Notes: generated from the sequence alone by a model not told the origin. 64,000 bases of DNA from Phreatobacter sp. (GCF_022843985.1 NZ_JALHMP010000012.1:35471-99470), one strand, 5' to 3'. Shown: positions 249 to 35,865, numbered from the stretch's first letter. Made by a program: numbers and translations.

Positions 249-1046
249 ATGTATCCTTTCAAGTACCAGAAGGCCGCCACCGTCCGCGGTGCCGTCTCGC
301 TCCTCGGCAAGGCCGAGGATCCCAAGCTGCTGGCCGGCGGTCACACGCTGATCCCCACCATGAAGCAGCGGCTCGCCAGCCCGAAGACCCTGATCGACCT
401 GTCGGGTGCCGGCCTGTCGGGCATCGAGCAGAAAGGCCGCAACATCGTCATCGGCGCGATGACCACCCATGCGGAGGTCGCCGCGTCGCCGGTCGTCCAG
501 CAGGCGATCCCGGCGCTCGCCCGGCTGGCCGCCCATATCGGCGACCCCCATGTCCGCCATCGCGGCACGATCGGCGGTTCGGTCGCCAACAATGACCCGG
601 CGGCCGACTATCCCGCGGCGCTGATGGCGCTGGGGGCGACTGTCCACACGAGCAAGCGCAAGATCCCGGCCGAGGAATTCTTCGCCGGAATGTTCGCGAC
701 CGCCCTCGACGAGGACGAGGTGATCACCAAGATCGCCTTCCCGGTGCCGGGCAAGGCCGCCTATGTGAAGTTCCCCAATCCGGCCTCGCGCTACGCCATC
801 GTCGGCGTCTTCGTCGCCAAGAAGGGCAGCCAGGTGAAGGTCGCCGTCACCGGCGCCGGATCGGGCGGCGTCTTCCGCCACACGGCGATGGAGGAGGCGC
901 TGGCCAAGCGCTTCAACCCGAAATCGCTGGAGGGTGTCGCGACGCCCGCCGCCGATCTCAACGGTGACATCCACGCCTCGGCGGACTACCGCGCCCATCT
1001 GGTCGGCGTCATCGCCAAGCGCGCCGTTGCTGCCGCCATGGCCTGA
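249..1046 (+). CDS. coxM: FAD-binding medium subunit, CoxM/CutM family
   Basis: LAGGHTLIP and RHRGTIGGSVANNDPAAD FAD-binding motifs; RBS-like GAGG upstream. Confidence 0.92.
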   Translation: MYPFKYQKAATVRGAVSLLGKAEDPKLLAGGHTLIPTMKQRLASPKTLIDLSGAGLSGIEQKGRNIVIGAMTTHAEVAASPVVQQAIPALARLAAHIGDPHVRHRGTIGGSVANNDPAADYPAALMALGATVHTSKRKIPAEEFFAGMFATALDEDEVITKIAFPVPGKAAYVKFPNPASRYAIVGVFVAKKGSQVKVAVTGAGSGGVFRHTAMEEALAKRFNPKSLEGVATPAADLNGDIHASADYRAHLVGVIAKRAVAAAMA

Positions 1047-1719: not shown

Positions 1720-2559
1720 ATGAAATCCCCCCTTGCCGTCCTCGCCGCCGCGCTCCTCTCCCTCGGCGCCGCGCCGGCGGCCGCTCAGGTGCCGGGTCAG
1801 GTGCCGGGTCAGGTGTCGGCCGATTATGCGGTGAGCTTTCTCGGGCTTCCGATCGGCCGCGGCACGATGGTCTCGACGTCGGACGGGAGGACCTACCGGA
1901 CCACGCTCGAGGCGCGCGTTACCGGCATGGCGGCCATCTTCGCCGGCGGCTCGGGCACCGCCACCTCCGTCGGCCAGATCCGCGGCAACGGTCCAGTGCC
2001 CTCCAGCTTCACCGTGGAGATCCGCTCGGGTGGCAAGGTCGAGACGATGCGCATGGCCATGGCCGGGGGCAATGTCACCGGCGTCACCCGTGACCCGGAC
2101 AAGCCGCCGCATCCGCGCGCCACTCCTGTCCTGCCCGAGCACCTGCGCGGTGTGCTCGACCCGCTTTCCGCCGGTATCTTCGTTGCCGGCGGGACGGGCC
2201 CCGTCGCGGGGGCCGCGGCCTGCCAGCGCCGCACGCCGGTTTATGGCGGACGCGAGCGCTTCGACCTCATCTATTCCTTCGTCGAGACCCGGCAGGTGGA
2301 GATCGGCGGCTACAGGGGCGAGGCTGCGGTCTGCCGCGTGCGGTTCGAGCCGATCGCCGGCTACAGGCCCGACCGAAATGACATCCGGAACGCGCGGCAA
2401 CGCTCCGCCGAGGTGATCCTCGTTCCGGTGCGCGGCACGCGGAACCTGCTGCCGGCGAAGATCACCCTGGCGACCGGCTATGGCACCGGCATCGCCCTGG
2501 CGACGCGGCTGGCGCTCGATCCGGGCCCGCCGACGGCACGGCGCGCCTCCGCGGATTGA
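1720..2559 (+). CDS. DUF3108-family exported protein
   Basis: GGAGG RBS before ATG 1720; signal peptide MKSPLAVLAAALLSLGAAPAAA; DPLSA...C...Y.GRERFD...C.VRF.PIAG pattern of DUF3108. Confidence 0.8.
   Translation: MKSPLAVLAAALLSLGAAPAAAQVPGQVPGQVSADYAVSFLGLPIGRGTMVSTSDGRTYRTTLEARVTGMAAIFAGGSGTATSVGQIRGNGPVPSSFTVEIRSGGKVETMRMAMAGGNVTGVTRDPDKPPHPRATPVLPEHLRGVLDPLSAGIFVAGGTGPVAGAAACQRRTPVYGGRERFDLIYSFVETRQVEIGGYRGEAAVCRVRFEPIAGYRPDRNDIRNARQRSAEVILVPVRGTRNLLPAKITLATGYGTGIALATRLALDPGPPTARRASAD
1786..1821 (+). repeat. 12-bp in-frame tandem repeat (QVPG x2 + QVSA)
   Basis: caggtgccgggt caggtgccgggt caggtgtcggcc. Confidence 0.9.
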
Positions 2560-17501: not shown

Positions 17502-17586
17502 TGGTGCGGACGGCCGGACTCGAACCGGCACGGGTTGCCCCGCAAGATTTTAAGTCTCGTGCGTCTACCGATTTCGCCACGCCCGC
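17502..17586 (-). tRNA. tRNA-Leu (anticodon TAA)
   Basis: Reverse complement GCGGGCGTGGCGAAATCGGTAGACGCACGAGACTTAAAATCTTGCGGGGCAACCCGTGCCGGTTCGAGTCCGGCCGTCCGCACCA: cloverleaf, long variable arm, TTCGAGT T-loop, encoded CCA. Confidence 0.97.
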
Positions 17587-33358: not shown

Positions 33359-34018
33359 TCAGCGGGCGAACATCACCGGTTCGGCGTTCGCCTTGAGGTC
33401 GGCGCCGAGTTCCTGGCCGAGGGCAAGGATGGCCTCGATCGGCTGCTGGCCGGAGAATTCGATGGCGACGCCACGCTCTAGGATGCGCACGACGCGTGCC
33501 ATGGTGCGGGAGATCTGCACGATGTCGCCGGGCTTGAGGTCTTCGGCGCCACCGATCGCCGCGCCCGACAGGGAGATGTCAAGTACACGCACCGGCACCT
33601 TGTCGCCGAGCGGCGTGGTGATGGTGGTAAAGGGGTTGCGCGGAATGACGCGCTCGTGGCGACGATCTTCCGGCAGCCCGAGGATCTGGCGGTTGGCCAG
33701 CCAGGTCAGCTGGTCGGCGAGCTTGTCGCGCTTGCGCAGCGAGGCTTCGATGGTCATCGAGAACCCGGTCTCGGTGGCGCGGACGATCATGCCCTCGATT
33801 CGGCCGATATGGTCGAGATAGGCGATGACACGCTCGCCCAGCTTGCCGACCACGGGGGCAACGATGGCGGCGCCGCCCGGAGACATGTCCACGACCTGAC
33901 AGGGGAATTCGCGGCGATCCGACAGCATGAAGCGGCCGAGCACGTCCACGCGCACGCGCTGGAAGCGACGGTTCTCTTCCGAAGATGGTCCGGACAGGAC
34001 TTTCGCGAGCGCTGACAT
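33359..34018 (-). CDS. Tandem PilZ-domain protein
   Basis: RRFQRV + DMSPGG and RRHERV + DISLSG: two RxxxR / DxSxxG sets. Confidence 0.92.
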   Translation of the reverse strand: MSALAKVLSGPSSEENRRFQRVRVDVLGRFMLSDRREFPCQVVDMSPGGAAIVAPVVGKLGERVIAYLDHIGRIEGMIVRATETGFSMTIEASLRKRDKLADQLTWLANRQILGLPEDRRHERVIPRNPFTTITTPLGDKVPVRVLDISLSGAAIGGAEDLKPGDIVQISRTMARVVRILERGVAIEFSGQQPIEAILALGQELGADLKANAEPVMFAR

Positions 34019-34091
34019 ATTCGACGGGGTTCGAGGACGATGCGTCAAAGATTAACGGCTGAGCGTTAACGCAGTGTTGCAAAGCACCTCA

Positions 34092-34694
34092 TCAGGCCAC
34101 ATTACCGCCCTGAATGATACGCAGTGCCGGTCGCGCGGAAAAGGTCATCGCGGTCGGTTGCACGGGGGACGTGGCGGCAAGCGCTGCGGGGTCTTGCCAG
34201 GTCGGCCAGACCAGACGGATCGTCTCGATCTCGATGCTGGCGAGACCGTCGCGTCCGATCCAGTAAGGCAGCTCGGCGGCACTCATGGCGCCTATCAGAC
34301 GGGCTCCGAGGCGCCCGCGATGGACGAGCGGCAGAAGGATGGCCTCGAGCGCCATGCTGCGCCCGGCCGTGCTGGTGGCCGAGAGCTGCATCAGCATGCC
34401 CGCAGGAGCTGCCAGCGCATCACCCAGGGTGCCGGTCACCGCCTTGCGCGCATCCGGGGTGAAGACGTCGAGGAAGCCGGTGCCCTTCAGTTCCCCCGCG
34501 AAGAGCGTGCAGGCCCTCGAACCGGCGAGACGGTAGATGAGGCTGCCGTTGCGATCGGTTTCGAGGACGATCGTATCACCGAGAATCGGCGCGATCGCAC
34601 GGGGATCGATCTCGGTGCGGTCGGGAGCCGGTCGGCCGGCACGCAGCTGGTCCCAGTGGGCGAAGAGGGTGCTGCTGGCGGCATTGTTCATCAT
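34092..34694 (-). CDS. PAS_5 (DUF1457) domain protein
   Basis: LFAHW..LRAGRPAP.R.EIDP.AI...LGD, YRLAGS..C.LF..ELKG, E..LLPL. Confidence 0.85.
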   Translation of the reverse strand: MMNNAASSTLFAHWDQLRAGRPAPDRTEIDPRAIAPILGDTIVLETDRNGSLIYRLAGSRACTLFAGELKGTGFLDVFTPDARKAVTGTLGDALAAPAGMLMQLSATSTAGRSMALEAILLPLVHRGRLGARLIGAMSAAELPYWIGRDGLASIEIETIRLVWPTWQDPAALAATSPVQPTAMTFSARPALRIIQGGNVA

Positions 34695-34794
34695 GGGCCT
34701 CGTCTGTGCCGATCCGGGACGGAAAATGCCCGGATGCGAAGGATCGAGACGTGATCAGCACCGCCTGTGCCATGGCCCGGCGAGGAGGATAGGG

Positions 34795-34834
34795 TTAACC
34801 CTTGGTTTCCGCGTTAGGGTTAAGAAAGGGTTTC
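34795..34834 (-). promoter_or_regulatory. Two degenerate CtrA-like sites upstream of the PAS gene
   Basis: Minus strand GAAA-N7-TTAAC occurs twice, 25 bp apart. Confidence 0.45.
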
Positions 34835-34924
34835 GATTGCCGGCGGCGCATGGCGTGTGGTTCGGTTCGGTCGTTCCACGAATTCGGTACGCCGGTCTTG
34901 ACTCCCGGCGGATCGCTCAACTTC

Positions 34925-35031
34925 AGGCATATCTCCGGGGACACGAGGAGATGGAGACGTGACCTATCGGGAATGGTTCGCCATTCCCCACGTTCCAGCC
35001 GGGGGAGATCGTCAGATCTCCCCCTTTTTTT
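34925..35031 (+). ncRNA. Candidate structured small RNA (family not recognised)
   Basis: Three hairpins: ATCTCC/GGAGAT; GGGAATGG-TTCG-CCATTCCC extended by ACGTG/CACGT; GGGGGAGATC-GTCA-GATCTCCCCC followed by T7. Confidence 0.65.
35001..35031 (+). terminator. Strong intrinsic terminator
   Basis: Perfect 10-bp stem plus TTTTTTT. Confidence 0.85.
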
Positions 35032-35148
35032 GTCCTTGCGGTGCCCGGTGGGGTCCTGCGGGTTGTCGCGCACCCGGGCAGCTCTCGACACGGGGGCCGC
35101 CTTGGCTCTAGTGAGACCTTCCCGCAGGCGATCCCCCGGCAGTTCTCC

Positions 35149-35865
35149 TTGTCCGAACGCGAACCGATCCTCAACATTCCCGGCGTGGTGACTGCGCTCA
35201 GCCTGGCGATGATCGTCATCCATGTCGGGCGCCTCTTCCTTCTCAGCGACGATGCGGACCGCGAGGTCCTGCTCACCTTCGCCTTCATCCCGGCCCGGTT
35301 CGAGCCGTCGCTGGCCGGCACCTGGTTCCCCGGCGGCGCGGCGGGGGACGTGTGGACCTTCGTGACCTACGGCTTCCTCCATGCCGACTGGACGCACCTC
35401 GCTGTCAACGTCCTCTGGCTCGCGGTGTTCGGGTCGGCGGTGGCGCGTCGCTTTGGCACCCTGCGCAGCCTTGTCTTCTTCGCCGTCACGGCGGCAGCAG
35501 GCGCGCTCGGCCATCTCCTGGCGGTCGGGACCGCCTTCGTCCCGGTGATCGGCGCTTCGGCCGCCGTCTCCGGCTTCACAGCCGCGGCACTGCGCTTCGT
35601 CTTTCAGGCGGGCGGCCCGCTCGGCCCCAGGCGCGCGAGCGGAGAGGATGCCTACAGGGTGCCGGCGCTGGGACTCGCCGCCATGGTTCGCAACGGTCCG
35701 GTCATGGGGATGGTGGTGGTGTGGATCGGGGTCAATGTCGCTTTCGGCGCAATCAACCTGCCGATGCCGGGCTTCGAGGGCCAGATCGCCTGGCAGGCGC
35801 ATCTGGCGGGGTTTGCAGCAGGACTTTTTCTCTTCCGCTTCTTCGATCCATTCCGCGCCGGCTGA
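35149..35865 (+). CDS. Rhomboid family intramembrane serine protease (start uncertain, TTG 35149 assumed)
   Basis: REPILNIP, TYGFLHADWTHL..N, IGASAAVSG, AWQAHLAGF. Confidence 0.88.
   Translation: MSEREPILNIPGVVTALSLAMIVIHVGRLFLLSDDADREVLLTFAFIPARFEPSLAGTWFPGGAAGDVWTFVTYGFLHADWTHLAVNVLWLAVFGSAVARRFGTLRSLVFFAVTAAAGALGHLLAVGTAFVPVIGASAAVSGFTAAALRFVFQAGGPLGPRRASGEDAYRVPALGLAAMVRNGPVMGMVVVWIGVNVAFGAINLPMPGFEGQIAWQAHLAGFAAGLFLFRFFDPFRAG

Follow-up and report, generated by a model that had tools for sequence, protein, structure and literature searches.

The intergenic region between the divergently oriented PAS_5 and rhomboid protease genes of Phreatobacter sp. contains, at positions 34925-35031, an element that is very probably a genuine structured RNA gene. 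Our preferred explanation, to which we give an even chance when it is taken as a whole, is that this element is an independent, trans-acting structured small RNA (sRNA) that uses an invariant GA-rich block. Coordinates refer to the window, i.e., the whole 64,000-nucleotide stretch of DNA that was analyzed (GCF_022843985.1, NZ_JALHMP010000012.1:35471-99470).

Under this explanation, transcription would start from a conserved candidate promoter containing the hexamer CTTGAC (34897-34902) and would stop at an intrinsic terminator (35001-35031). The resulting RNA of ~105 nt is predicted to fold such that a short stem, P0, closes a junction, the P1 hairpin displays a GGGGACA loop, and P2 forms a long bulged hairpin. 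The gene would be transcribed divergently from a PAS_5-PilZ-LapG-like cluster, with a conserved regulatory region of ~200 bp common to both. The RNA would then act in trans by base pairing via its 5' block, which is GA-rich and invariant and comprises the P1 loop and GGAGACGUGAC, possibly with the assistance of Hfq, which is encoded in the genome (tblastn 4e-21). The leader of the neighboring PAS_5 mRNA is a tentative candidate target.

Fold, strand, and conservation of the element

The plus strand of 34925-35031 has a predicted minimum free energy (MFE) of -53.7 kcal/mol (z = -5.23), and none of 200 dinucleotide shuffles folded as low. The minus strand of the same interval also yields a strong fold (z = -4.66). 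Since both strands fold well, the strand assignment rests on other evidence, namely the U-tail and the presence of G-U pairs. The latter account for ~36 of 650 pair cells (~5%) in the homologues and would be C-A on the opposite strand; together with the U-tail, they identify the plus strand as the functional one. The overall architecture is a three-way junction closed by P0 and bearing the P1 and P2 hairpins, followed by the terminator (Table 1). The stems named in the preliminary description, i.e., the UUCG-capped 8-bp stem, its extension, and the perfect 10-bp terminator stem with its U7, were all located, as was its CTTGAC hexamer. It had further noted that no plus-strand CDS ends here; indeed, PAS_5 lies on the minus strand and the rhomboid start lies downstream, and all its statements of fact about the sequence were correct.

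Table 1. Features of the element, its flanking DNA, and its positional homologues. Coordinates are those of the window unless a contig is named; "." marks features assigned to neither strand.
Feature	Position	Strand	Description
PAS_5 gene	34092..34694	-	Pfam PF07310; divergent from the sRNA, first of the PAS_5-PilZ-Peptidase_C93 cluster
Shared regulatory DNA, sRNA to PAS_5	34792..34887	.	GGGTTAAC, GTTAGGGTTAAG-AAGGGTTTCGATTGC, and CGTTCCACGAATTCGG conserved
Candidate promoter	34897..34924	+	CTTGAC (-35-like, 34897-34902), CGCTCAACTT (-10 region); genus-conserved
Predicted small RNA	34925..35031	+	~101-107 nt; putative 5' end; 3' end in U-tract
P0, 5' strand	34926..34928	+	GGC; partner 34998-35000; 3-bp stem closing the three-way junction
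P1 hairpin	34931..34952	+	AUCUCC/GGAGAU, 34931-34936 with 34947-34952; 10-nt loop GGGGACACGA
Near-invariant 5' block	34933..34963	+	C-GGGGACA-N-GAGGAGA-N-GGAGACGUGAC, 31 nt; candidate seed or recognition region
P2	34953..34996	+	Lower stem, 7-nt 5' bulge beginning AC, UUCG-capped upper stem
P2 lower stem	34953-34961 / 34989-34996	+	GGAG(A)CGUG paired with CACGUUCC
P2 upper stem	34969-34976 / 34981-34988	+	8 bp, UUCG cap
P0, 3' strand	34998..35000	+	GCC; partner 34926-34928; from the fold
Intrinsic terminator	35001..35031	+	10-bp G+C-rich stem, 4-nt loop, U7; directly after P0
Terminator stem	35001-35010 / 35015-35024	+	Perfect 10 bp; T7 at 35025-35031
Promoter-like motif	35082..35117	+	CTCGAC-N18-CTAGTG within GCTCTCGACAC..GGCTCTAGTGAGAC
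Rhomboid protease gene	35149..35865	+	Pfam Rhomboid; start TTG 35149, not GTG 35041
Positional homologues	L106 2923-3019; L109 about 1945-2030	-	Same promoter and terminator, different body

The RNA is nearly all paired and has no A/U-rich single-stranded stretch of the kind typical of Hfq-dependent sRNAs, a feature that we count against our preferred explanation. A scan for terminators recovered exactly one site, 35001-35031, in 2 kb, against a chance expectation of 1.6; hence, a terminator-like pattern alone is no rarer than chance in this region. It is conservation with covariation, rather than the terminator pattern, that raises the element above chance.

With a 161-nt query, 20 of the 22 Phreatobacter genomes were found to have a single copy of the element, at the same syntenic position. 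The gene order PilZ-PAS_5-[element]-rhomboid-CBS is retained at all 20 of these loci, PilZ and CBS being the genes beyond PAS_5 and rhomboid. A search with the core pattern added 12 metagenome contigs, and one more distant contig, L111, was also recovered. A covariance model built from 17 sequences recovers all these loci at 85-128 bits, and the element is kept as one unit in the 32 loci within this range.

Covariation in orthologous intergenic regions, which the preliminary description had put forward as a check, was found in the form of both conserved pairing and compensatory changes. Across 26 distinct homologues, 98.5% of the pair cells are standard pairs (99.2% in the terminator), and compensatory, both-sided changes are seen at 10 of 25 pairs, of which seven fall among the eight pairs of the P2 upper stem and three among the ten of the terminator. 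None of 500 shuffles matched the observed pairing and compensation, and sliding the 3' partners by 1-3 columns reduced pairing to 49-61%. Folded individually, all 26 sequences give the same junction and terminator, with P0 present in the MFE structure of nearly all. A fourth P0 pair is absent from the window's clade; several lineages have it as U:A and the metagenome sequences L095 and L055 as C:G. This alternation suggests that the transcript starts at or before G34926. Both strands of P1 are invariant across the homologues, and covariation is thus silent for or against this hairpin. In L111, the P2 cap is GCGA instead of UUCG, the RNA being otherwise canonical.

The 5' part of the element shows a different kind of constraint. 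The GGGGACA of the P1 loop is invariant among the homologues. The GGAGACGUG strand stays constant while its partner drifts between CACGUUCC, GACGCUCC, and AACGCUCC, and the 5' strand GGAGACGUGAC likewise shows no variation even though its partner varies. This suggests that a constraint other than forming the helix acts on the block; it could come from a protein, an alternative fold, or a pairing partner.

Two short reading frames were considered and rejected. A 50-aa ORF from GTG 34959 spans the terminator, and indels of 1-2 nt disrupt its frame in the homologues; the ATG of a three-codon M-E-T ORF is AGG in many species. The element therefore reads as non-coding, and it lies in intergenic DNA. 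The proposal of a discrete, self-terminating sRNA stands with respect to its structure, its own conserved terminator, and the lack of a match to any repeat or known family, whereas its start at 34925 is a position that we infer.

Candidate promoter, shared upstream DNA, and the PAS_5-PilZ-LapG-like cluster

CTTGAC and the conserved block downstream of it are putative -35 and -10 elements, respectively. A scan with the sigma-70 consensus gave no promoter match at the candidate site, and species differ by 1-2 nt in their -35/-10 spacing. Sister lineages with a different RNA body keep the promoter block (GACACCACCGnCGaTCCGC..AACTT).

Between this block and PAS_5 lies the shared DNA. The upstream half of the intergenic region has conserved RNA structure on neither strand, and the conserved elements of 34792-34887 are accordingly read as putative DNA sites. 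These include conserved TTAA boxes at 34795 and 34820, which read TTAA-N7-TTTC and form two units, GGTTAACCCTTGGTTTC at 34793 and GGTTAAGAAAGGGTTTC at 34818, that are spaced by 25 nt and followed by GATTGC (34792-34841). The TTAA-N7-TTTC unit is a half-match to the CtrA box TTAA-N7-TTAAC, and its second copy is kept even in the sister lineages L106, L109, and L111. Two other readings were discarded: the palindrome CACGAATTCGG as a regulon motif, its genome hits being mostly FHEF codons within genes, and GGGTTTCGATTGC as a sigma-54 site, its GG being unconserved and its spacing one base short.

Closer to PAS_5, the genus conserves an imperfect dyad, GTGCC-GATCC-GGGAC (34706-34720), 12-26 nt ahead of the PAS_5 start codon. 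The corresponding dyad of a Variibacter contig (L108, about 628-648, minus strand) is a perfect palindrome, CTGTCCC-GTGAC-GGGACAG, and that of L109 is in the opposite orientation, GTCCC-GGAAT-GGCAC. This dyad is probably an operator for a regulator of the PAS_5-PilZ-LapG-like cluster.

The cluster itself is widespread beyond the genus, as traced via its PilZ protein, which is always found within a PAS_5-PilZ-Peptidase_C93 (LapG-like) arrangement; several lineages keep a divergent intergenic region of 430-535 nt. The Pfam domains PilZ and Peptidase_C93 suggest c-di-GMP-dependent control of adhesion. The tandem-PilZ protein (33359-34048, minus strand) is far more conserved than its neighbors: its identity is 80-95% among Phreatobacter and 60-69% for other Rhizobiales families, whereas that of PAS_5 is 48-85%.

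In two of the sister lineages, L106 and L109, the upstream DNA boxes and the promoter block are retained, along with a 5' AGGC/GAGG, the terminator, and a 3' UCCAG-like linker. The internal RNA sequence of these lineages differs and is devoid of the invariant block, yet it still adopts a fold with two hairpins and a closing stem. At this fixed locus, the RNA body has turned over. In L106, the terminator is followed by a transaldolase gene rather than rhomboid; since the downstream gene changes, the stable association is with PAS_5 and the shared regulatory region. The Variibacter contig L108 has the cluster and no such RNA.

Evidence bearing on expression comes from one soil metatranscriptome (run X12), in which two short unstranded contigs, 34706-34880 and 34894-35044, together cover nearly all of the intergenic region. 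The flanking CDSs have no contigs, and 20 kb yielded only four further full-length pieces. The local enrichment of ~30-fold is built on three fragments, with a depth of ~2.5 and with DNA carry-over as a possible source, and two sister runs have nothing at the locus. The piece 34894-35044 begins 31 nt before the proposed start and extends 13 nt beyond the U-tract; as it overruns both predicted ends, it does not derive from the discrete RNA. These contigs may reflect a longer transcript (a PAS_5 leader or read-through), beside or instead of the short RNA. A 105-nt RNA would be lost from such libraries, and expression of the sRNA is plausible.

Candidate targets and competing readings

Target prediction, which the preliminary description had proposed, gave no genome-wide signal above shuffled sRNAs: the distribution of duplex energies over 6450 crude start regions was indistinguishable from those of six shuffled sRNAs. 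Among the exact complements of 11-16 nt that were examined, a 16-mer on contig 26 lies in the same sense inside an LptD-like CDS and a 13-mer on contig 30 is antisense to a real gene; both were set aside as chance matches.

Support, of a weak kind, was obtained for a single candidate target, the PAS_5 leader. In this genome, the duplex of this leader with the 5' block has an energy of -36.6 to -38 kcal/mol, which is in the top 1% of ~400-600 start regions. The duplex reaches p <= 0.05 in 7 of 20 genomes, and a rough combined p at the level of clades is ~0.03. It includes a 9-bp match of GAGACGUGA (34954-34962) with UCACGUCUC (the complement of 34746-34754). The complementary sites vary by clade and vanish in close relatives, and the 9-mer has a mismatch in genome G004. 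The 9-mer GAGACGTGA has two plus-strand copies, one at 34746-34754 in the PAS_5 leader region and the other at 34954-34962 in the invariant block of the sRNA. The clade of G001 duplicates TCCTGGGGA in place of GAGACGTGA, and the duplication is not shared across clades. As a possible target of the loop, the GUCCC of the PAS_5 leader was rejected; it is half of the DNA dyad, and its conservation therefore needs no RNA pairing.

The possibility that the RNA instead serves as a binding platform was raised in the preliminary description in the form of titration of an Rsm/Csr-like protein. This specific version found no support: of the five GGA motifs in the 107 nt, only the one in the P1 GGGGAC loop is unpaired, the other four lying within stems, and a search with the Pfam CsrA model (PF02599) over six frames of the genome, which is 100% complete, gave no match, while control genomes gave hits. 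A Csr/Rsm sponge is thus rejected for this genome, which lacks CsrA. A broader version, that the junction and the twin GGNGAC motifs (GGGGAC and GGAGAC) are recognized by some other protein or by a small molecule, is fairly unlikely. Its partner could reside in the PAS_5/PilZ module, with the RNA acting by sequestration or as a sensor. The scarcity of unpaired nucleotides, an invariance that exceeds the needs of pairing, the repetition of the GGGGAC/GGAGAC motif, the lack of a convincing RNA target, and the stable linkage to the PAS_5-PilZ-Peptidase_C93 cluster are all consistent with such recognition. However, besides the missing CsrA, no riboswitch or protein-binding family matched in a permissive Rfam search extending to E = 10, and no candidate binding protein was identified. 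Moreover, the sister lineages keep the position and the junction shape and lose the invariant block, which is a poor fit to a binding pocket.

A second alternative, likewise anticipated in the preliminary description, is that the element is a cis-acting leader or attenuator that allows signal-dependent read-through from the sRNA promoter into rhomboid-CBS. A structured domain, then a terminator, then a co-oriented gene is the layout expected of such a leader, rhomboid is downstream in most lineages, and one metatranscriptome piece spans the terminator. In addition, the AUCUCC/GGAGAU repeats common to P1 and the terminator would permit an alternative fold, in which AUCUCC of the P1 5' strand pairs with GGAGAU of the terminator 5' strand and the P1 3' strand pairs with the terminator 3' strand. 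However, the swapped fold offers 6+6 bp against 6+10 bp and receives no support from covariation, the columns concerned never varying among the homologues. The downstream context also argues against it. Rhomboid begins at TTG 35149, from which CCTTGTCCGAACGCGAACCGATCCTCAAC is conserved in all loci (the start codon being GTG in two species), whereas GTG 35041, the mechanical ORF start, falls in non-conserved sequence. The rhomboid start has no Shine-Dalgarno sequence and has a CU-rich UUCUCC directly upstream. The spacer from the terminator to this start is 65-190 nt long and unalignable, and it contains, ~30 nt before the start codon, a promoter-like motif (35082-35117) that is kept in 19 of 20 genus loci and might be rhomboid's own promoter. 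No known riboswitch class matches the element, and L106 has transaldolase after the same promoter, junction, and terminator, such that there is no constant gene downstream to be regulated. Taken together, these observations make an attenuating rhomboid leader unlikely.

A third alternative places the function in the act of transcription. Here, the firing of a promoter beside that of PAS_5 would be what matters, through coupling, interference, or a shared regulator, and the RNA would be a by-product whose structure and terminator keep it short and stable. The conservation of the promoter and upstream boxes where the RNA body is replaced fits this; with the body replaced and the promoter and terminator kept, transcription itself could matter more than sequence. 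So do the 200-bp shared region, which is conserved as DNA without RNA structure, and the stable pairing of the gene with PAS_5 and not with the downstream gene. Nevertheless, the body is under strong purifying selection in Phreatobacter, and an invariant block of 31 nt together with compensated helices is unlike a by-product. As the replaced bodies, too, still form three-way junctions, we regard this alternative as distinctly unlikely.

A more specific conjecture, and a long shot, is that the RNA is a dedicated partner of the PAS_5-PilZ-LapG-like module, with its twin GGNGAC block read by a protein of the module or by a nucleotide signal. If true, c-di-GMP control of surface adhesion would be coupled to an RNA switch, and co-evolution of the body with its partner would account for its wholesale replacement with position, promoter, and type of fold kept. 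Finally, beyond the unexceptional frequency of terminator-like patterns in the region, there is little to recommend a functionless chance hairpin cluster or decayed remnant, which is extremely improbable in light of the covariation, invariance, and synteny over 26 distinct sequences and the z of -5.2.

Novelty, significance, and relation to known small RNAs

A search of 34650-35200 against Rfam 15 at the gathering threshold gave no match, and the sole Rfam hit in the whole window is a tRNA at 17505-17586. The preliminary description had suggested such a search, and no known family was found at threshold either in the window or in seven homologous loci. A local permissive search of the window returned nothing better than E = 0.025. 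BjrC80 (RF02354) scored 12.8 bits (E = 5.2) in the window against a gathering score of 80 and had no hit in the seven homologous loci. A repeat, a possibility that the preliminary description had allowed for, and a mobile element are both rejected: no repeat family matched, and the element is single-copy in the genome, with no paralogue of its core. A full-text literature search for Phreatobacter and "small RNA" found no paper.

Outside the genus, the covariance model retrieved only terminator look-alikes from 292 non-Phreatobacter genomes of the same order, and the core pattern had no match in 400 genomes of the class; overall, the core motif is absent from ~700 other alphaproteobacterial genomes. 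The invariant block characterizes the Phreatobacter lineage. Elsewhere in the order, unrelated genomes (L030-L035) repeatedly carry terminators with the pattern GGGGGAG-NNC ... GNN-CUCCCCC-U(6-8), which score 22-28 bits; these are false matches and call for caution in model-based searches with this RNA.

It is well supported that the element represents a previously undescribed sRNA family of an ordinary kind. The element adds a well-supported structured RNA gene that was missed by annotation pipelines, and the alignment of 26 sequences with a consensus structure, which underlies the proposed family, could seed a new Rfam entry. Phreatobacter is a freshwater genus that is common in drinking-water and groundwater systems. 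As the RNA always lies opposite the PAS_5-PilZ-LapG-like cluster, it provides a handle on the regulation of a widespread and poorly understood module. More generally, the locus offers an example for sRNA evolution in which the body was replaced while the promoter, the terminator, and the shape of the junction were kept. Current ideas are not overturned by this RNA.

Comparison with known systems places the element among, yet apart from, several classes. It resembles riboswitches and attenuators in having a three-way junction followed by an intrinsic terminator and a co-oriented gene downstream; it differs from such leaders in the lack of a model match, the inconstant downstream gene, and the variable spacer with its promoter-like motif. 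It resembles CsrB/RsmZ in having several GGA motifs but departs from them in that the genome has no CsrA/RsmA gene, a single GGA is in a loop, and there is no array of repeated hairpins. Of the Rfam models, Atu_C4 (RF02499), whose function is unknown, alone aligned repeatedly to the element; the gathering score being 80 bits, it reached 23.8 bits in the window and 27.4 in L012. Like the element, it is a small RNA of the Rhizobiales, with a short hairpin followed by a UCCAG-like linker and a G+C-rich intrinsic terminator. However, the alignment covers only the 3' 63 nt, i.e., the P2 tip and terminator, and the aligned features are generic; Atu_C4 has nothing that corresponds to P0, P1, or the invariant 5' block. 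Finally, AbcR1/2 (alpha-r15) are trans-encoded, terminator-ended alphaproteobacterial sRNAs that are intergenic beside a functionally linked gene. The element shares with them the plan of an independent intergenic unit of ~100 nt with stem-loops, a Rho-independent terminator, Hfq in the genome, and conservation within a lineage, while having no sequence or model similarity to them. Whereas AbcR1/2 expose CU-rich anti-SD loops, the element exposes the G-rich GGGGACA loop and the GA-rich block. As most alphaproteobacterial sRNAs carry CU-rich anti-SD loops, a GA-rich seed would set this RNA apart as unusual among them.
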